Assembly: GCF_965641715.1 (NCBI RefSeq)
Contig: NZ_OZ282453.1
Length of the DNA: 64,000 bases
Reading direction: 5' to 3' (one strand)
DNA from: Escherichia coli
GTDB lineage: Bacteria > Pseudomonadota > Gammaproteobacteria > Enterobacterales > Enterobacteriaceae
Numbering within the stretch: position 1 is the first letter of the stretch; the number at the start of each line of letters is the position of its first letter. Of the stretch, positions 1,555-60,901 are shown one piece after another. The translations under genes and the position numbers were made by a program. The notes beneath the pieces are model-generated. The model was given only the letters and a program-made list of their open reading frames with translations, was not told the DNA's origin and did not search any database.

Positions 1555-1705
1555 GCACCGATGCCTGATGCGACGCTTGACGCGTCTTATCAGGCCTACG
1601 TATTTCCTGCAATTTATTGAATTTGCACAAATTTGTAGGCTGGATAAGGCGTTCACGCCGCATCCGGCATCTGGGCTCGATTGCCTGACGCGTCTGTTAT
1701 TTCCC
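1555..1705. repeat. REP/BIME cluster (about three palindromic units) in the convergent dtpD-phr junction
   Basis: Imperfect GC-rich palindromes such as gcctgatgcgacgc...gcgtcttatcaggcctac and ggataaggcgttcacgccgcatccggca, typical of E. coli REP elements. Confidence 0.7.
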
Positions 1706-39986: not shown

Positions 39987-40063
39987 GGCTACGTAGCTCA
40001 GTTGGTTAGAGCACATCACTCATAATGATGGGGTCACAGGTTCGAATCCCGTCGTAGCCACCA
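39987..40063 (+). tRNA. metT: tRNA-Met (elongator, anticodon CAT)
   Basis: ggctacgtagctcagttggttagagc...gtcgtagccacca; cloverleaf with CAT anticodon and encoded CCA. Confidence 0.95.
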
Positions 40064-40071
40064 TCTTTTTT

Positions 40072-40156
40072 GCGGGAGTGGCGAAATTGGTAGACGCACC
40101 AGATTTAGGTTCTGGCGCCGCAAGGTGTGCGAGTTCAAGTCTCGCCTCCCGCACCA
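40072..40156 (+). tRNA. leuW: tRNA-Leu (anticodon TAG), class II with long variable arm
   Basis: gcgggagtggcgaaattggtagacgc...ctcgcctcccgcacca, 85 nt. Confidence 0.93.
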
Positions 40157-40179
40157 TTCACCAGAAAGCGTTGTACGGA

Positions 40180-40254
40180 TGGGGTATCGCCAAGCGGTAA
40201 GGCACCGGTTTTTGATACCGGCATTCCCTGGTTCGAATCCAGGTACCCCAGCCA
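40180..40254 (+). tRNA. glnU: tRNA-Gln (anticodon TTG)
   Basis: tggggtatcgccaagcggtaaggcaccggtttttgataccgg...cccagcca. Confidence 0.93.
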
Positions 40255-40288
40255 TCTTCTTCGAGTAAGTGGTTCACCGCCCGGTTAT

Positions 40289-40363
40289 TGGGGTATCGCC
40301 AAGCGGTAAGGCACCGGTTTTTGATACCGGCATTCCCTGGTTCGAATCCAGGTACCCCAGCCA
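40289..40363 (+). tRNA. glnW: tRNA-Gln (anticodon TTG), identical copy of glnU
   Basis: Identical 75-nt sequence to the glnU copy. Confidence 0.93.
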
Positions 40364-40378
40364 TCGAAGAAACAATCT

Positions 40379-40455
40379 GGCTACGTAGCTCAGTTGGTTA
40401 GAGCACATCACTCATAATGATGGGGTCACAGGTTCGAATCCCGTCGTAGCCACCA
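40379..40455 (+). tRNA. metU: tRNA-Met (elongator, anticodon CAT), identical copy of metT
   Basis: Identical 77-nt sequence to metT. Confidence 0.93.
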
Positions 40456-40501
40456 AATTCTGAGTGTGTCGAATATGTTCGGCAAATTCAAAACCAATTT
40501 G

Positions 40502-40576
40502 TTGGGGTATCGCCAAGCGGTAAGGCACCGGATTCTGATTCCGGCATTCCGAGGTTCGAATCCTCGTACCCCAGCC
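40502..40576 (+). tRNA. glnV: tRNA-Gln (anticodon CTG)
   Basis: tggggtatcgccaagcggtaaggcaccggattctgattccgg...cccagcca. Confidence 0.93.
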
Positions 40577-40614
40577 AATTTATTCAAGACGCTTACCTTG
40601 TAAGTGCACCCAGT

Positions 40615-40689
40615 TGGGGTATCGCCAAGCGGTAAGGCACCGGATTCTGATTCCGGCATTCCGAGGTTCGAATCCTCGTACCCCAGCCA
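40615..40689 (+). tRNA. glnX: tRNA-Gln (anticodon CTG), identical copy of glnV
   Basis: Identical 75-nt sequence to glnV. Confidence 0.93.
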
Positions 40690-48172: not shown

Positions 48173-49081
48173 ATGCAATTACGTAAACCTGCCACAGCAA
48201 TCCTCGCCCTGGCGCTTTCCGCAGGACTGGCACAGGCAGATGACGCCGCCCCGGCAGCAGGCAGTACGCTGGACAAAATCGCCAAAAACGGTGTGATTGT
48301 CGTCGGTCACCGTGAATCTTCAGTACCTTTCTCTTATTACGACAATCAGCAAAAAGTGGTGGGTTATTCGCAGGATTACTCCAACGCCATTGTTGAAGCA
48401 GTGAAAAAGAAACTCAACAAACCGGACTTGCAGGTGAAACTGATTCCGATCACCTCACAAAACCGTATTCCTCTTCTGCAAAACGGCACTTTCGATTTTG
48501 AATGTGGTTCTACCACCAACAACGTCGAACGCCAAAAACAGGCGGCTTTCTCTGACACTATTTTCGTGGTCGGTACGCGCCTGTTGACCAAAAAGGGCGG
48601 CGATATCAAAGATTTTGCCGACCTGAAAGACAAAGCCGTAGTCGTCACTTCCGGCACTACCTCTGAAGTTTTGCTCAACAAACTGAATGAAGAGCAAAAA
48701 ATGAATATGCGCATCATCAGCGCCAAAGATCACGGTGACTCTTTCCGCACCCTGGAAAGCGGTCGTGCCGTTGCCTTTATGATGGATGATGCCCTGCTGG
48801 CCGGTGAACGTGCGAAAGCGAAGAAACCAGACAACTGGGATATCGTCGGCAAGCCGCAGTCTCAGGAAGCCTACGGTTGCATGTTGCGTAAAGACGATCC
48901 GCAGTTCAAAAAGCTGATGGATGACACTATCGCTCAGGTGCAGACCTCCGGCGAAGCGGAAAAATGGTTTGATAAGTGGTTCAAAAATCCAATTCCGCCG
49001 AAAAACCTGAACATGAATTTCGAACTGTCAGACGAAATGAAAGCACTGTTCAAAGAACCGAATGACAAAGCACTGAACTAA
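48173..49081 (+). CDS. gltI: glutamate/aspartate ABC transporter periplasmic binding protein (302 aa)
   Basis: Starts MQLRKPATAILALALSAGLAQA (signal peptide); the track ORF carries a 25-codon upstream extension. Confidence 0.95.
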   Translation: MQLRKPATAILALALSAGLAQADDAAPAAGSTLDKIAKNGVIVVGHRESSVPFSYYDNQQKVVGYSQDYSNAIVEAVKKKLNKPDLQVKLIPITSQNRIPLLQNGTFDFECGSTTNNVERQKQAAFSDTIFVVGTRLLTKKGGDIKDFADLKDKAVVVTSGTTSEVLLNKLNEEQKMNMRIISAKDHGDSFRTLESGRAVAFMMDDALLAGERAKAKKPDNWDIVGKPQSQEAYGCMLRKDDPQFKKLMDDTIAQVQTSGEAEKWFDKWFKNPIPPKNLNMNFELSDEMKALFKEPNDKALN

Positions 49082-49084
49082 TTA

Positions 49085-49240
49085 CAAGAACCAGGGGCGG
49101 AAATTCTAGCCCTCTCGATTGTTACGTAGCACGGACAGACTATACGCCTGATGGTCGTTCCCCATCGGGCCTGAAAACCGCAATACGCTGGGTAACAATC
49201 TTCGAGGGTAGCAGTTAACGCTGCTACCCTCTTTTTTCTG
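49085..49240 (+). ncRNA. sroC: SroC-type sRNA region in the gltI-gltJ spacer (processed from the gltIJKL mRNA)
   Basis: Position equivalent to the known SroC locus; spacer ends in a strong hairpin gagggtagcagttaacgctgctaccctctttttt (about 49204-49236); exact ends not determinable from sequence. Confidence 0.45.
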
Positions 49241-52526: not shown

Positions 52527-54197
52527 ATGGATAATGCAGAACTCGCCATTGGTATCGATCTCGGTACTACCAATAGTTTAATTGCCGTCTGGAAAGACGG
52601 TGCCGCGCAATTAATTCCAAATAAGTTCGGTGAATATTTAACACCATCCATAATTAGCATGGATGAAAATAATCATATTTTAGTCGGAAAACCGGCTGTA
52701 TCACGGCGCACTTCGCATCCGGATAAAACGGCAGCGTTATTTAAACGTGCAATGGGCAGTAATACCAACTGGCGGTTAGGCAGCGACACATTTAACGCGC
52801 CAGAACTGTCCTCTTTGGTATTACGCTCATTAAAAGAAGATGCCGAAGAATTTCTGCAACGTCCGATTAAAGATGTGGTGATCTCTGTTCCGGCTTATTT
52901 CAGCGATGAACAACGCAAGCATACCCGTTTAGCAGCGGAGTTAGCCGGTTTAAATGCGGTACGCTTAATTAATGAACCCACAGCAGCTGCGATGGCGTAT
53001 GGCCTGCATACCCAACAAAATACCCGTTCGCTGGTGTTTGATCTCGGTGGCGGCACGTTTGACGTTACGGTGCTTGAGTACGCCACGCCGGTGATTGAAG
53101 TTCACGCCTCCGCTGGCGACAACTTCCTCGGTGGCGAAGATTTTACCCATATGCTGGTCGATGAGGTTTTAAAACGCGCGGATGTCGCCAGGACCACGCT
53201 TAACGAGAGTGAACTGGCAGCCTTGTATGCCTGTGTGGAAGCGGCAAAATGTAGCAATCAATCGCCAATGCACATTCGCTGGCAGTACCAGGATGAAACG
53301 CGGGAATGCGAATTTTACGAGAACGAACTGGAAGATTTGTGGTTGCCGCTGCTCAATCGCTTGCGAGTGCCGATTGAACAGGCGTTGCGCGATGCGCGTC
53401 TGAAGCCGAGTCAAATCGACAGTCTGGTGCTGGTTGGCGGCGCGTCACAAATGCCGCTGGTGCAGCGAATCGCCGTGCGTCTGTTTGGCAAATTACCGTA
53501 TCAAAGTTACGATCCGAGCACCATTGTCGCGCTGGGCGCAGCAATCCAGGCTGCCTGCCGCTTACGCAGTGAAGATATTGAAGAAGTGATCCTCACTGAT
53601 ATTTGCCCTTACTCGTTGGGCGTTGAGGTTAACCGTCAGGGCGTTTCCGGCATTTTCTCGCCGATTATTGAACGAAACACCACTGTGCCCGTGTCGCGTG
53701 TAGAAACTTATTCAACCATGCACCCGGAACAGGATTCAATTACGGTTAACGTCTATCAGGGAGAAAACCACAAAGTTAAAAACAACATTCTGGTGGAATC
53801 CTTCGATGTGCCGTTGAAGAAAACCGGGGCTTATCAGTCGATTGATATTCGCTTTAGTTATGATATCAACGGTTTGCTTGAAGTTGACGTGCTTCTGGAA
53901 GACGGCAGCGTTAAGTCCAGAGTGATTAACCACAGCCCGGTAACATTGAGCGCGCAGCAGATTGAAGAGAGTCGGACGCGGTTATCCGCATTGAAAATTT
54001 ATCCGCGCGATATGCTCATCAATCGTACCTTTAAAGCCAAACTGGAAGAGTTGTGGGCGCGGGCGCTGGGTGACGAGCGAGAAGAGATTGGCCGGGTGAT
54101 CACCGATTTTGATGCGGCGCTGCAGTCAAACGATATGGCCCGCGTCGATGAGGTCAGGCGGCGGGCGAGCGTTTATTTAGCCATTGAGATCCCATAA
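52527..54197 (+). CDS. hscC: Hsp70-family chaperone HscC (556 aa)
   Basis: Hsp70 ATPase signatures (IGIDLGTTNS, DLGGGTFD); no long C-terminal lid. Confidence 0.95.
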   Translation: MDNAELAIGIDLGTTNSLIAVWKDGAAQLIPNKFGEYLTPSIISMDENNHILVGKPAVSRRTSHPDKTAALFKRAMGSNTNWRLGSDTFNAPELSSLVLRSLKEDAEEFLQRPIKDVVISVPAYFSDEQRKHTRLAAELAGLNAVRLINEPTAAAMAYGLHTQQNTRSLVFDLGGGTFDVTVLEYATPVIEVHASAGDNFLGGEDFTHMLVDEVLKRADVARTTLNESELAALYACVEAAKCSNQSPMHIRWQYQDETRECEFYENELEDLWLPLLNRLRVPIEQALRDARLKPSQIDSLVLVGGASQMPLVQRIAVRLFGKLPYQSYDPSTIVALGAAIQAACRLRSEDIEEVILTDICPYSLGVEVNRQGVSGIFSPIIERNTTVPVSRVETYSTMHPEQDSITVNVYQGENHKVKNNILVESFDVPLKKTGAYQSIDIRFSYDINGLLEVDVLLEDGSVKSRVINHSPVTLSAQQIEESRTRLSALKIYPRDMLINRTFKAKLEELWARALGDEREEIGRVITDFDAALQSNDMARVDEVRRRASVYLAIEIP

Positions 54198-54199
54198 TC

Positions 54200-54245
54200 A
54201 CGGCTGCCGGATGCGGCGTAAATGCTGCATCCGGCATCGGCGCAA
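54200..54245. repeat. REP-like palindrome between convergent hscC and djlC
   Basis: cggctgccggatgcggcgtaaatgctgcatccggcatcggcgc. Confidence 0.6.
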
Positions 54246-54256
54246 AAAACACATCG

Positions 54257-55708
54257 TCAACTAAACACCATCGCGATTTTGCCGAGAGCATAACCTATCA
54301 CCAGCACCGTTAAGCTGATTTTGATAATGCTGGTAATGCTCTGTGGTTTTTCATCCTCATCATTTTTTTCTTCATGGTTTTCAGGTATTGGCTCATCGAC
54401 ATCTTCATCCCCCGGCTCGAGTTTCACTTTCGTCAACAGCATCCGGGTGATAATGGCCTCTAATGGATGAGCATCTCCACCTTCCAGCCTTGTATTAAGA
54501 CGGGCCAGCATCTCTTGTTTCGGAAACGCTTCAAGTACTACCTGTTCCGCTACCCGATACAAATCCAGTAACGGTGAATCTTCTTCTGTCTCGCTACCGA
54601 CTCTCGATTTCCACCACGCCCATGCTTTGCGTTTGAAGAATAGCGACTCAATAAACGATTGACCTAACGGCGATAATTTTCCGCTATGTAAAATTTCCGC
54701 CCATAACAGCCGCGTCCGGGCGCTCTCACCAGGAACATATTTCAGCGGTTGACCTTGCGCATCTACCATGCTCCGCGCTTCGATAACCATCACTAATAAC
54801 GCGAAATAATCCGGGCAATGACGCTTGCTCCACTGCAACAACAAATTATCAGCTTGTGTAGATGGGTAACTTCCCCAGTACGCGCAGAGATCGGCAAGCA
54901 GGCTTTCCCCCTCGCCGCAGTACAAACGTTGTGCACACTGGTAATACCGGGCATCTTCGCTTTCTGGTTCTTCCGTTTGCCACTGTTGGGCAACAGGAAT
55001 GAGTTCCGCCATACCTGTTTGCACCGAGCTGTACCAGCGCAACAGTTTGCGATGTAACTTTGCATCATCAGGAATGAACCACGGACCTTCCATCGCCAAA
55101 AACGCAGTGACATAGTCAGGATGGTAATGGCAGCAACGTTCCAGCGCGAAGTAATATTCAACAGTCTGGTTCTGCAACGCAACGGGATATTCCAGAAGGC
55201 CAAGGAAATCGAAACAATCACCAGCCTGAATGGCCTCAAGAAAAGCCTCCCTTTCTTCCTCATCTATTCCTTCGCTGTCATTAAACGAATGCCAGTTCAA
55301 ACGCTCTGCCAGCAAAGAAGCACAATTTAATGAAAGATATCGCGCTTCTATAGCGATTGCACACAGCGGCCAGCGTAATTGATCGACATCCTCCATGTTC
55401 CAGGTATTTAATTGCTGAATAAATTTCTGCCAGGCGGAAGGCTGAAAACGATCACTTTCTGAATCCAGTAATGTCCTGAATGCACGTAGTATTTCATGTT
55501 CAGCGGCGGCATCTTTTTCTTCATCATCTGCTTCCTCGACAGGATTTACCGCCAGTCGCAGCGCCTCTTCATAGGCCTGGCGTAATGCTTTAAACCCCTG
55601 CGGATCGGTTTCGGGATGACATAACGGTAAGCGAGCAAGATAAGCCTGGCGGATAATGTCTATTTGCGTCGTGCTTTCAATTTCGAGGATTTGCCAACAT
55701 GTTTTCAT
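54257..55708 (-). CDS. djlC: J-domain-like co-chaperone of HscC, tail-anchored (483 aa)
   Basis: N-terminal J-like segment ([33 protein letters not shown]); C-terminal hydrophobic helix ([25 protein letters not shown]). Confidence 0.9.
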
Positions 55709-56412
55709 AGGTCGCTCACATCCTTAAGCGTTACCGGGCATTCAGGCTGGACAGTTAATGGCTGCCAGGGAAGCGTGGCATAGAAACGATCGCTTCCCGC
55801 TGCCAGTTCTTCGAACATACGACTCCCGGCGCTATCGTATTTGTACAGGGTTAGCGCCTCGCGTAGCGAAGTGTTGTCTTCGCACTGAGAAGATTGCCAG
55901 TAGAGACGCCCTAGTGAATAGGCAGAAAAATAGTGCATCCAGCTGTGATAGTAATGGTGAGCTCGTACATAGACGCGCGATTGCAGCCATAAACTCTCGT
56001 CTTCCGTCAGCCACTTGTTGAGCACACCGACCCGTGACAGAAACCCCATTCGAACATAATCCCAAGCTTTGATTCCCCCTTCTCCACAGCACATAGCGGT
56101 TTGGGCAACGAATTGGGTATAAATCAACCCTCTCTCCGAGCCACCAGCAATTAATGCTTTCCACTCTTCAGGGGAAGAGCGATGCCATGTCAGATATAAG
56201 CCAGCTAAATCATTAGCATGACCATCATCAGTCATCTGATAAATAGTCTGAATTAAATCATCACGATTATTTATTCCCCAGGATGATGAGAGATCGAATT
56301 CTTTTATCCCGGTATACATTTTTGGCGAGTCATGCGCGGGTTTGCAACCCTGATTAAGTATTTCCATGGGCGCAGAAAGCGCAAAAAGAAGATATTGTTC
56401 TTCCTTATTCAT
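55705..56412 (-). CDS. ybeU: DUF1266 protein (235 aa), paralog of YbeR
   Basis: 4-nt overlap with djlC; high similarity to the 58501-59208 ORF. Confidence 0.88.
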
Positions 56413-56512
56413 TTGTTAATAATCCCTTAAATGCATTAACTGACTACTTTTTATTATTGATGAGTATAAACTTGACGCTTTCAAAATAAAAAGAAAATCG
56501 AAGCATTCACAC

Positions 56513-57067
56513 ATGAATAAAAAATTAATGTATATATTCGCAATTTTTATAGTTGCAGCAATTACCTGTATTAGCCAACCCAAGAAAACGACGTTGCGTG
56601 ATAAAGCCATGGTGAATTATGCCTTTGATTATTTAAGCTCACCGGGCAGTCTTCCATTCACCACGGCAGCCACGGAGCTTTCCGCGATTCATGGTCACTC
56701 AACGTCGCAATATCGCCTTGGAGAATTTTATCTTCATGGTAGCGACGGTAAACCACTGGATTATACACAGGCGAGATACTGGTATGAGCAATCAGCGGAA
56801 CAGGAAAATCCACGCGCGCAAAGTAAACTGGGGTGGATCTACCTCAAAGGTCTGGGGGTCAAACCCGACACCCGTAAAGCAATTCTCTGGTATAAGGAAG
56901 CAGCTGAACAAGGGTATGCTCATGCTCAATATACTTTAGGTTTGATCTACAGAAATGGCTCAGGTATTAATGTTAACCATTATGAATCTCAAAAATGGTT
57001 AAAACTGGCCGCCAAACAACATTACAAAAATGCGGAAAGATTACTTGCCGGGCTTCCCGCACATTAA
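56513..57067 (+). CDS. ybeT: Sel1-repeat protein with N-terminal signal/anchor (184 aa)
   Basis: Repeated Sel1/TPR-like units ([18 protein letters not shown] etc.). Confidence 0.88.
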
Positions 57068-57076
57068 CGTCGACTG

Positions 57077-58504
57077 TCACCCGAACAGATGGAGTATTTT
57101 CCCTATCAAACCAGCAAAGATAAAAATATAGAAAATAATTTTAATGATGCCCAGACAGCCTGGCCCACCATCGTCAACGGGCATTGGCTGCGGTTGCGGC
57201 TCCGGTTCAACAGTTTGCTTCTCGGTAAAATTCGCCGCCTGAATTAATAATCGACGAATAATTAATGCTTCCAGTGGACAACGATCTTCTGCATCAAGAC
57301 GGCTTACAATCGGCATTAATGATTCTTCTGTAGGTTGGCTGGCCTGCACTAATTGTTTGGCAACTAGATATAATGGCCATAAGGTATGTTCTGTATCACG
57401 CTTGAGTGAGATCCGCGGCTTACGTCCTTTGTGCAAAACCATCTCGACCAGTGAACGCCCCAGAGCAGAGAGTTTTTCATCGCTGAGTATTTCGTATAAA
57501 TGAAAACGCGTACGGGCGCTGTCGCCGGGGATATAAAGTAGCGGTTTTCCCTGATCGTTAACCAGTTCGCGAGCTTCAATCATCATCACCACTAATGGGT
57601 AATAATCGACTCGATGCTGACGGCACCATTGCAACATTAAAGCATCCGCCTGAGTGGAGGGATACTCGTGCCAGTAGTCACAAAGTTCTGCCAGCAGGCT
57701 TTCGCCTTCTCCACAATAGACGCGTTGCGCGTATTCATAATAACGCGCATCTTCATTATCAGGTTCAGCTTCCCGCCACGACCGGGCGTAATCCAGGAGT
57801 TCGGGAATTCCCAGGCGACCTGCGCTATACCAGCGGAGTAAATTTCTGTGCAGTTTTGCATCATCGGGGATAATCACTGCGCGATGTTGCGCTAAATACA
57901 ATGTCAGCCATTCTGGATGCGATGACCAAATCCGAGCGAACATTTGGTAAAAATCGATGGTGTCATTTTGCACGGCAACGGGCAGATGCAGAATGGTCTG
58001 GAAGTTAAAAACATTCCCCTTCGCAATGGCATATAAAAAGGATTCCAGTTCTTCTTCGTCTATTTCCCCGACGTTTTCCTCCTGCAACCACCGCAATCTT
58101 TCTGCTAATAACACCACGCACTCGAAGGATAAATGGGCAGTGTTCATGGCGATTGTGCACAGCGACCAGCGTAATTCATCAATCTCTTCCATCGAGCAAT
58201 AATTTAATTGCTGAATGAATCGCTGCCAGGCGGAGGGCAGAAAACGTTCGCTATCAGAGGCAAGTAACGCACGAAAGGCGAGCAGAATTTCATGTTCTGC
58301 TACCTCATATTCTTCTGGTTGCCAAACAGATTTAGCAGGCGACTGCGCAATCCGTAGCGCCTCCTCATACGCCTGACGAAGTTGTTTAAAACCCTGCGGA
58401 TCGGTTTCTGGATGAAAGGACGGTAACAGCGCCAGATAAGCGCGGCGGATAATATCGACGTCAGTCGTTTCCTCTATGTTGAGGATCTTCCAGCAATTTT
58501 TCAT
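57077..58504 (-). CDS. djlB: J-domain-like co-chaperone of HscC, tail-anchored (475 aa), paralog of DjlC
   Basis: N-terminus [50 protein letters not shown]; C-terminal hydrophobic tail. Confidence 0.9.
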
Positions 58505-59208
58505 AGGTCGCTCATATCCTTAAGCGTTTCCGGGCATGTGGGGTAGTCAGCCAGTGGTTGCCAGGGTAAGGTCGCGTAATATGCATCGTCACTGGCAAAT
58601 AATTGATAAAACATATCATTGCCGGAATCGTCGTATTCTTTACGCGCTAAGAATTCACGTAATAAAGGCAGATTATCATCTTCGGGAGACTGCCAATATT
58701 GCCGACCAAAGGTATAACCGGCAAAGTATTGCCGCCAGTTACTATAATAACGTAGAGCCCGTAGATGAATACGCGACTGGATCCATAGACTTTCTTCTTC
58801 ACTCAACCAGTTATTAAGTACGCCCATTCGACTTAAAAAACCCATCCGGACATAATCCCATGCTTTAATTCCTCCCTCACCACAGCATTCGGCTGTGCTG
58901 GCGACAAATTGCGCATAAGCCTGACCTTGCTCATTTAATTCAGCAAGATAGTCACGCCATTCACATGGAGAATAACGAAACCAGCGGTGATAAAACCCTG
59001 CCAACCGCGCGGCATGACCGTTATCGATCATTCGGTGAATTGTGCGCAGCAGGTCATCACGGTCATCAATTCCCCAGGAGGAAGAAAGGTCAAAAAAGCG
59101 TGTACCTAAATACATTTTGGGTGATGAATGCGAAGGTAAACAGCATTCATTGCGTATTTCCATCGGAGTGGAAAGTGCAAACAATATTTTTTTCGACTCC
59201 ATGTCCAT
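58501..59208 (-). CDS. ybeR: DUF1266 protein (235 aa), paralog of YbeU
   Basis: 4-nt overlap with djlB. Confidence 0.88.
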
Positions 59209-59365
59209 ATAATTTATCCTTAAACATTCATTTAATGAATGTAAACTACATTACGAGGCTCATTTATTTATACTTTTCTGACACAACATAATACGCATAA
59301 AATAAGACTTACGCAAAAACGGAACACATAAAAATATAATATGTTTTATCTGCAACCATAAGGAA

Positions 59366-60349
59366 ATGATAATGATTTTTACGTCAAGTTGCTGCGATAA
59401 TTTGTCAATAGATGAGATTATCGAACGTGCTGAACAAGGCGATAGTGAGGCTCAATATATTGTTGGGTTTTATTATAATCGCGATAGCGCAATTGACTCT
59501 CCGGACGACGAAAAGGCCTTTTACTGGCTGAAGCTGGCCGCTGAGCAAGGTCATTGTGAAGCACAGTATTCCTTAGGGCAAAAGTATACCGAGGATAAAA
59601 GCCGTCATAAAGATAATGAGCAAGCCATCTTCTGGCTGAAAAAAGCTGCCCTACAAGGCCATACTTTCGCTTCCAACGCCCTTGGCTGGATACTGGATCG
59701 TGGAGAAGACCCCAACTATAAAGAAGCGGTTGCCTGGTATCAGATAGCCGCGGAGAGCGGAATGTCTTATGCGCAAAATAATCTTGGGTGGATGTACAGA
59801 AATGGCAACGGAGTCGCACAAGACTATACGCTGGCATTTTTCTGGTACAAACAAGCTGCATTACAAGGCCATAGTGACGCGCAAAACAATCTGGCCGATC
59901 TTTATGAAGACGGAAAAGGCGTTGCTCAAAACAAGACACTCGCCGCATTCTGGTATTTGAAAAGCGCACAGCAGGGTAATCGGCATGCTCAGTTTCAAAT
60001 TGCATGGGATTATAACGCTGGCGAAGGGGTGGACCAGGACTATAAGCAAGCGATGTACTGGTATCTGAAGGCTGCCGCTCAGGGGAGCGTCGGCGCTTAC
60101 GTCAACATCGGTTATATGTATAAACACGGACAAGGCGTTGAGAAAGATTATCAGGTTGCCTTTGAATGGTTTACGAAAGCCGCTGAATGCAATGACGCCA
60201 CTGCCTGGTATAACCTGGCCATTATGTATCACTACGGAGAAGGAAGACCTGTCGATCTCCGACAGGCTCTCGACCTGTATCGTAAAGTTCAGTCATCCGG
60301 AACCAGAGATGTCAGTCAGGAAATTCGTGAGACTGAAGATTTACTGTAG
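59366..60349 (+). CDS. ybeQ: Sel1-repeat protein (about 325-327 aa; start may be 2 codons downstream)
   Basis: Seven or more Sel1-like repeats (AQYxLGxxYxxGxGVxxD). Confidence 0.85.
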   Translation: MIMIFTSSCCDNLSIDEIIERAEQGDSEAQYIVGFYYNRDSAIDSPDDEKAFYWLKLAAEQGHCEAQYSLGQKYTEDKSRHKDNEQAIFWLKKAALQGHTFASNALGWILDRGEDPNYKEAVAWYQIAAESGMSYAQNNLGWMYRNGNGVAQDYTLAFFWYKQAALQGHSDAQNNLADLYEDGKGVAQNKTLAAFWYLKSAQQGNRHAQFQIAWDYNAGEGVDQDYKQAMYWYLKAAAQGSVGAYVNIGYMYKHGQGVEKDYQVAFEWFTKAAECNDATAWYNLAIMYHYGEGRPVDLRQALDLYRKVQSSGTRDVSQEIRETEDLL

Positions 60350-60359
60350 AGATAAAAAC

Positions 60360-60390
60360 AAGGGCCGGGGAATTTCATTCGGCCCATATT
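60360..60390. terminator. bidirectional hairpin between convergent ybeQ and ybeL
   Basis: gggccggggaatttcattcggccc. Confidence 0.5.
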
Positions 60391-60418
60391 CTCTTTATCG
60401 CCGTGCAAAATCAGACTA

Positions 60419-60901
60419 TTACGGCTCGAACGGGCGTCTCTGGAACTGATCATGACCACATTTCGGGCATAGCGTCAGCACTTCCGGTGTGTAGATCGGG
60501 AGATGGAAGTGACATTTCTCGCAGACCAGATTTCCCAGCCCGACCACTTCTCCGCTGTGATAAACCCCATGATGATTGAGGTCCTGGAAAACTTCGCGCC
60601 ATTCAAGCTGCGTTTTATCGGTGATGTCTGCCAGCTCCTGCCACAAGCTTTCTTTAATCACCCGCATAAAGACGCTGTCAGATTCTTCTTTCAGGCTCTC
60701 TTCATAGCTCATGGCGAACTCTTCCAGGTCACGTCTGACAGCTCGCGTCAGCTCATCGACCTCGGTTCGCGTTAACTCCCCTGTTTTTATTACGCGCTCG
60801 CGCGCCTGTTCCACCAGTGCGTCGATATCACGTTCGCCATTGCGCAGGCGTTCGCTCAGTGACGCAACCAGTTCACGGTAATATTGAGCAACCTTGTTCA
60901 T
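60419..60901 (-). CDS. ybeL: DUF1451 zinc-ribbon protein YbeL (160 aa)
   Basis: C-terminal CxxC...CxxC (CEKCHF...CPKCGH). Confidence 0.88.
   Translation of the reverse strand: MNKVAQYYRELVASLSERLRNGERDIDALVEQARERVIKTGELTRTEVDELTRAVRRDLEEFAMSYEESLKEESDSVFMRVIKESLWQELADITDKTQLEWREVFQDLNHHGVYHSGEVVGLGNLVCEKCHFHLPIYTPEVLTLCPKCGHDQFQRRPFEP

Follow-up and report, generated by a model that had tools for sequence, protein, structure and literature searches.

Introduction

The His-Pro-Glu (HPE) motif that replaces the canonical His-Pro-Asp (HPD) in the Escherichia coli J-proteins DjlB (YbeS) and DjlC (YbeV) is already known, as are their partnership with the Hsp70 HscC and their tail anchor. HscB is a soluble protein with a canonical HPD and delivers a single defined client (IscU), whereas DjlB and DjlC carry HPE, are membrane-anchored and, to our knowledge, have no known clients. 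The likeness to HscB and HscA lies in the pairing of a private class C J-protein with a divergent Hsp70, the two being co-encoded and needing no nucleotide exchange factor (PMC8215388).

[quoted passage not shown] DjlB is assumed to act like DjlC; both are described as tail-anchored, membrane insertion having been shown for DjlC, and both the hscC deletion and the double djlB djlC deletion result in Cd2+ sensitivity (PMC8215388). A UV phenotype is also reported for hscC. The J-domain of DjlC cannot substitute for that of DnaJ (PMC1906734). A 2023 survey collected 2,921 HPE J-domains and named DjlB and DjlC among them (PMC10410713), and a 2026 review describes the HPE of these two proteins as apparently the sole replacement of HPD that is tolerated (PMC13254874).

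The classical mode of docking is that of the DnaK-DnaJ complex (PDB 5NRO, Kityk et al. 2018), in which His33 of DnaJ bonds to the backbone of Leu391 of DnaK, Pro34 is packed against Pro419, and Asp35 forms bonds with both Arg167 and Gln378 (PMC8215388). J-proteins grouped as 'type IV', such as DNAJB13 with HPL and Pam16 with DKE or DKS, are presumed unable to stimulate Hsp70 (PMC13254874). They resemble DjlB and DjlC in having a tripeptide that departs from HPD inside an otherwise recognisable J-domain, and differ from them in that the HPE of DjlC is reported to be compatible with stimulation of its partner Hsp70 (PMC8215388, PMC13254874).

Here we analyse djlB and djlC in a window of 64,000 nucleotides from an E. 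coli contig (NZ_OZ282453.1). The window genes are the same genes as those described above and nothing substantive differs; as the motif, the HscC partnership and the tail anchor all stand in reviews and large surveys, their identification as such adds very little. The comparative results provide incremental handles on the membrane role of HscC and on the use of Glu by this clade: an invariant Glu, an Arg/Gln acceptor that HscC has retained, HscC-specific Ser and Asn in place of DnaK Asp477 and Asp481, a coupled DUF1266 gene and Asn-Pro-Glu variants of the motif. The occurrence of these variants beside HscC-like genes and the constancy of the DUF1266 partner may be new, and so may the DUF805 membrane domain that takes the place of the tail anchor in some relatives.

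Results

The features of the locus are collected in Table 1. The gene order rihA-hscC-djlC-ybeU-ybeT-djlB-ybeR-ybeQ-ybeL-leuS was identical to that of RefSeq-annotated E. coli. An earlier reading of the sequence alone had assigned both J-like proteins to one interval; the two proteins are real, but that interval holds djlB only, and djlC lies outside it. DjlB was 98% identical to an E. coli 'J domain-containing protein' cluster that carries a PF27158 label and comprises 10,348 member sequences. Pairwise alignment of DjlB and DjlC gave 50% identity across their full length and 64% in the J-domain. Each J-protein gene is preceded by a DUF1266 gene, and in both pairs (ybeR/djlB and ybeU/djlC) the stop of the first gene and the start of the second overlap by 4 nt. 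No NCBIfam family was assigned to either DjlB or DjlC.

Table 1. Positions of the djlB/djlC locus and of other annotated features in the window
Feature	Position (nt)	Strand	Basis
ES036 sRNA	1592-1634	(-)	Rfam
seven-tRNA cluster	39987-40686	(+)	Rfam
sroC sRNA	49077-49239	(+)	Rfam
hscC, specialised Hsp70, convergent with djlC	52527-54197	(+)	Pfam HSP70 (E 2.3e-116); annotation; DnaK alignment
djlC (ybeV) CDS, 483 aa, paralogue of djlB	54257-55708	(-)	ORF, Pfam, RefSeq annotation
DjlC predicted tail anchor	~54260-54340	(-)	Kyte-Doolittle
DjlC HPE codons	55610-55618	(-)	sequence
ybeU, DUF1266 protein	55705-56412	(-)	Pfam DUF1266 (E 5.4e-45); annotation
ybeT, Sel1-repeat protein, convergent with djlB	56513-57067	(+)	Pfam Sel1
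djlB (ybeS) CDS, 475 aa	57077-58504	(-)	ORF; RefSeq annotation; 98% identity to E. coli cluster P0001
DjlB predicted C-terminal hydrophobic helix (tail anchor), residues 450-474	57083-57157	(-)	Kyte-Doolittle; AlphaFold helix
DjlB predicted all-helical central domain, residues 63-432	57209-58318	(-)	AlphaFold, pLDDT mostly >90
DjlB J-domain, residues 1-54	58343-58504	(-)	Pfam DnaJ, family profile, AlphaFold, Foldseek
DjlB His31-Pro32-Glu33 codons CAT CCA GAA, replacing HPD	58406-58414	(-)	sequence
ybeR, DUF1266 protein	58501-59208	(-)	Pfam DUF1266 (E 1.6e-47)
ybeQ, Sel1-repeat protein, divergent from ybeR-djlB	59366-60349	(+)	Pfam Sel1 (E 9e-67)

The Escherichia locus (54257-60349) has the form of a tandem duplication of a cassette in which a Sel1-repeat gene stands divergent from a DUF1266-J-protein operon, the two copies being ybeQ / ybeR-djlB and ybeT / ybeU-djlC. 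The 6.5-kb region around djlB and djlC found matches in 5,424 of the 5,426 complete E. coli genomes and shared 95-99% identity with most sequenced E. coli. Only 3,695 of the 5,426 genomes kept 80% or more of this region (window 54000-60500); one best-matching genome carried an IS1 insertion in it, and numerous truncated forms of DjlB were present in protein records. The locus appears to be often eroded within E. coli. The Rfam scan of the window gave no match in the djlB region, and the three features that it did return (Table 1) are expected of E. coli and unconnected with djlB. The idea of a defence island was also considered and dropped, PADLOC having matched none of the genes in this locus to a defence system, beyond negligible noise from Sel1/PtuA.

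Both proteins carry HPETDPQGF at residues 31-39, so that the HPE-T-D motif noticed in the sequence alone is indeed present in each. The Pfam DnaJ model (PF00226) aligned to one divergent N-terminal stretch per protein (residues 4-47) with scores of 22.4 bits for DjlB (E 1.4e-4) and 18.7 bits for DjlC (E 1.8e-3), both single sequences falling under the gathering score of 27.8 bits; some relatives exceed this threshold, for example P0135 at 30.1 bits. A second J-domain with an intact HPD was not found elsewhere in DjlB or DjlC when the whole proteins were searched with Pfam. The N-terminus of DjlB alone retrieved mostly J-domains from the PDB, and the best matches were all J-domains, at a weak level of similarity (best E 0.0045). 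A profile built from 37 family N-termini matched 47 PDB sequences at E <= 0.01, all of them J-domain proteins, with DNAJA1 and dnj-12 at the top (8e-9) and E. coli DnaJ at 5e-8. Pairwise and profile alignments with DnaJ, DNAJA1, dnj-12 and CbpA set Glu33 on the Asp of HPD, and an Asp (Asp35) does follow two residues after this Glu, both as had been proposed.

Structure prediction with AlphaFold gave a full-length model of DjlB with a pLDDT of 89.3. More specifically, helix I spans residues 3-8 in this model, helix II 16-29 and helix III 36-54, with residues 30-35 (FHPETD) forming the loop between the last two; when residues 1-60 were modelled in isolation (pLDDT 86.4), HPE was again placed in the helix II-III loop. 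The PDB neighbours that Foldseek returned for the 60-residue model were essentially all J-domains (TM 0.6-0.8), and the model superposed on the J-domain of DnaJ in its DnaK complex (5nro_B) with an rmsd of 2.0 A over 53 columns. The N-terminus of DjlB and DjlC hence shows sequence similarity to J-domains by family profile and a predicted helix II/III hairpin with the tripeptide in its loop, while the otherwise invariant His-Pro-Asp is His-Pro-Glu in DjlB, in DjlC and in all relatives that have the His. Taken together, the profile matches and models indicate that it is a true but divergent J-domain.

In comparison with DnaJ as seen in the DnaJ-DnaK complex (5NRO), DjlB shares the helix II-loop-helix III hairpin and the His and Pro of the motif, and the equivalents of DnaJ R22, F47 and K51 are conserved as R20, F39 and R43. 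DjlB and DjlC differ from DnaJ in having Glu for Asp and a post-motif stretch that is shorter by about 7 residues, and a separate helix IV was not seen in the model of the first 60 residues of DjlB. In helix II, Escherichia DjlB and DjlC have Leu24 and Ala25 where DnaJ has Lys26 and Arg27, whereas most relatives have Arg at position 24 (72 of 78). A loss of basic residues from helix II that co-varies with a loop deletion in HscC was considered and rejected as a family trait, the loss being confined to the Escherichia proteins.

Following the J-domain, the model of DjlB shows a large central domain, which a precomputed Pfam label in the protein database assigns to PF27158 ('DjlB_C_2nd'). When the full-length model was compared with the PDB by Foldseek, no structure matched this domain confidently (best E 0.14, to assorted TPR and solenoid proteins), and the predicted fold can be described only as helical solenoid-like. 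A disordered stretch (residues 436-447) connects this domain to a terminal helix that stops one residue before the C-terminus. In hydropathy plots (Kyte-Doolittle, 19-aa windows, cut-off 1.6), the sole segments above the cut-off lay at residues ~446-475 of DjlB and ~457-483 of DjlC, in agreement with the single C-terminal hydrophobic helix that had been suggested for both. As is typical of tail-anchored proteins, DjlB and DjlC thus each have a single predicted transmembrane helix, located at the very end of the chain, and neither shows a signal peptide or a further hydrophobic segment. The most hydrophobic window was C-terminal in 92 of 99 full-length close homologues. DjlB-like proteins of ~890 aa occur in Pseudomonas, Gilliamella, Pectobacterium and others (P0135-P0168, L002, L012-L085), and in these a C-terminal DUF805-type multi-helix membrane domain replaces the single tail anchor; judged from these domain architectures, membrane attachment is conserved in the ~890-aa relatives by a different device.

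The motif was then compared across relatives. All 115 close homologues possessing the N-terminus carry HPE, distributed as HPETD (66), HPESD (31), HPETA (10), HPEND (7) and HPEID (1). Residues H31, P32, E33, P36, G38 and F39 were invariant in 46 relatives extending down to 16% identity, and D35 was kept in at least 90% of these. A search that covered 1.84 billion cluster representatives exhaustively returned 2,414 relatives at E <= 0.001; among the matches listed (50%-identity representatives), the motif was HPE in 87, NPE in 14, and SPE, LPE and PPE in one each, and this unbiased search revealed no HPD version among the matches listed with this N-terminal motif. Glu33 was unchanged in every relative examined. 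Overall, HPE is a conservative, family-wide substitution, one taken in the literature as a functional variant (PMC13254874), and, as its conservation across these relatives indicates, no chance feature. Position 35 was found to be Ala in 10 of the 115 close homologues and Asn in some distant relatives (HPETN, HPESN, NPEEN). Since Ala and Asn occur at this position, and since both models place Asp35 directly before helix III and beside Pro36, Asp35-Pro36 most likely constitutes the predicted start of helix III rather than a contact with HscC.

The genomic context of the family was examined in a scan for the pattern HPExDP[QED]GF that took a single genome from each species. It found 413 relatives, and 78 loci of other species were retained, in Escherichia, Klebsiella, Pectobacterium, Yersinia, Gilliamella, Pseudomonas and further genera. 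The pattern itself required HPE, and likewise Asp35, so these loci are blind to HPD relatives, and it is for this reason that the absence of HPD is drawn from the unbiased search described above. Using tblastn, we located an HscC-type Hsp70 gene within ~5 kb and on the opposite strand in 76 of the 78 loci. The linked Hsp70s were 55-98% identical to E. coli HscC, and their scores against HscC were about twice those against DnaK. The two loci lacking a linked Hsp70 were a Leminorella locus and a 384-nt contig. By tblastn, every one of the 78 loci had a DUF1266 gene immediately upstream of its J-protein gene and in the same orientation. A literature search for DUF1266 linked to Hsp70 found no such report among the papers covered. 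From gene neighbourhood, the DUF1266 protein looks like a third member that always accompanies the HscC module. Sel1-repeat genes (ybeT, ybeQ) adjoin the module only in the Escherichia loci among the 78.

We also aligned HscC to DnaK and checked the relevant positions across 72 HscC orthologues. The equivalents of the four DnaK residues contacted by the HPD tripeptide were invariant in 72/72: Arg146 for DnaK Arg167, Gln341 for Gln378, Leu356 for Leu391 and Pro388 for Pro419. In contrast to DnaK, HscC has no equivalent of loop 208-211 (missing in 72/72), has Ser at the position of Asp477 (Ser444; 72/72) and has Asn at that of Asp481 (Asn448; Asn in 71/72 and Ser in 1/72). In DnaK, Asp481 clamps Arg167, the residue engaged by the J-domain Asp. 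The Asp481-to-Asn change in HscC and the Asp-to-Glu change in the J-domain may be counterparts of each other. In the alignment the acceptor of the acidic residue has been kept while its surroundings have changed, which fits the classical mechanism operating through a re-tuned, private interface.

A set of TPR proteins of 700-1,400 aa shares the same J-like N-terminus with Asn-Pro-Glu (NPEDDPEGF) in which the His is lost; these account for the Asn-Pro-Glu motif in 14 of ~104 cluster representatives among the matches listed. In the four cases examined (P0240, at L003-L005; P0248, at L088-L089; P0253, at L086; P0259, at L087), an HscC-like Hsp70 gene was present near the J-protein gene each time, adjoining it in three and lying 3.5 kb away in one. 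The Hsp70s that were aligned were ~45% identical to HscC and lacked the DnaK 208-211 loop, and the R167 and Q378 equivalents were kept in the one checked for them (L003).

Discussion

Based on the results above, we propose that DjlB and DjlC are very probably class C J-domain co-chaperones of HscC that dock in the classical way, with HPE in place of HPD, and are anchored in the membrane. Each protein would be made of four parts. A J-domain of three helices at the N-terminus would be followed by a large helical domain, and a disordered linker would join the latter to a lone transmembrane helix at the C-terminus, which would anchor the protein in the inner membrane with its J-domain on the cytoplasmic side. 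The J-domain would dock on ATP-bound HscC as DnaJ does on DnaK, the helix II-III loop presenting His-Pro-Glu to HscC. From the alignment to 5NRO, we infer that Glu33 stands in for the Asp of HPD, forming hydrogen bonds with Arg146 and Gln341 of HscC and so leading to ATP hydrolysis. The privacy of the pair would arise from the extra methylene of Glu, from the loop shorter than that of DnaJ and from the HscC-specific changes (the missing 208-211 loop, Ser for Asp477 and Asn for Asp481, in DnaK numbering); such a private pair fits both the failure of DnaJ to activate HscC and the failure of the DjlC J-domain to replace that of DnaJ. The net outcome would be the recruitment of HscC to the membrane, where the translationally coupled DUF1266 protein would probably act as a third component, for example as an adaptor or a client. 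We likewise infer a helix-capping role for Asp35, any role of the DUF1266 protein and the activity of DjlB; the latter is assumed from its 64% J-domain identity to DjlC, which according to the review is the biochemically tested protein.

The sequence-only reading had left two possibilities side by side: divergent J-domains tuned to HscC, or J-like proteins acting outside the classical HPD mechanism. Under the second, DjlB and DjlC would be pseudo-J-proteins of 'type IV' that lack the classical trigger of ATP hydrolysis and serve as scaffolds, as Hsp70 inhibitors or independently of Hsp70. The strict HPD is missing, the Pfam DnaJ scores are sub-threshold, some relatives have lost even the His, and other HPD-less J-proteins are presumed to be non-functional (PMC13254874). 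Against this, Glu33 and the Arg and Gln that would receive it in HscC are all invariant, contrary to the expectation for decay, and the constant linkage to HscC points to a working pair; furthermore, HPE has been singled out as the tolerated replacement (PMC13254874), and the other review reports specific stimulation of the HscC ATPase by DjlC (PMC8215388). We consider this second possibility very unlikely, and it is not favoured given that the equivalents of DnaK Arg167 and Gln378 are kept in all HscC orthologues analysed. The J-domain homology and predicted fold, the invariant Glu and the near-constant linkage to an HscC-type Hsp70 argue instead for divergent, tail-anchored J-domains tuned to HscC.

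Within a working J-domain, the functional acid could alternatively be Asp35, in a register-shifted HP-x-x-D motif with Glu33 incidental. This would suit the retention of Asp35 in at least 90% of relatives and in 78/78 scanned loci, where the pattern demanded it, yet it seems very improbable, given that Asp35 is replaced by Ala or Asn in relatives while Glu33 never varies, that helix III begins at residue 36 in both models, which makes Asp35-Pro36 look like a helix start, and that every sequence and profile alignment sets Glu33, not Asp35, on the HPD Asp. It is also unlikely, if less so, that DjlC is the sole working co-chaperone and DjlB a redundant or decaying duplicate without a function of its own. 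The djlB of the window is intact at 475 aa, with all family-invariant J-domain residues and the tail anchor, and its cluster is large; the Cd2+ phenotype came from the double djlB djlC deletion, in which the two genes were not separated (PMC8215388). The incomplete retention of the region across E. coli, the IS1 insertion and the truncated forms of DjlB would nevertheless be compatible with decay, as would the fact that only DjlC has been tested with HscC, the function of DjlB being 'assumed' (PMC8215388).

The Asn-Pro-Glu relatives show that this clade can do even without the His, a hint that its mechanism may differ somewhat from that of DnaJ-DnaK. A wider reading, which we regard as speculative and rather doubtful, is that x-P-E-x-D-P-x-G-F is the hallmark of a distinct clade of J-domains, which co-evolved with HscC-type Hsp70s and in which Glu and not His would be indispensable, and that the DUF1266 protein is an undescribed third component of the HscC machine. 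If the Asn-Pro-Glu proteins prove active, the canonical His could be lost in this clade without abolishing ATPase triggering; were this reading true, triggering might rest on the Glu-Arg146 contact, reshaped by the HscC-specific Asp481-to-Asn change.

Lastly, several individual loci departed from the common arrangement. In Leminorella grimontii (L029), the DUF1266-J pair was present and Hsp70 was absent within 8 kb. In Pectobacterium sp. PL152 (L020), the HscC match was split into three pieces, and this hscC may be a pseudogene. The 384-nt contig (L080), from a Burkholderiales assembly of Caballeronia mineralivorans, encoded a product with 98% protein identity to E. coli DjlB and most probably represents E. 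coli DNA that contaminates the assembly. A locus beside leuS in GCA_010723345.1 (L006), at the same chromosomal position, contained an HscC-type Hsp70 and three DjlB-like paralogues of 458, 477 and 490 aa, two of which were preceded by DUF1266 genes.
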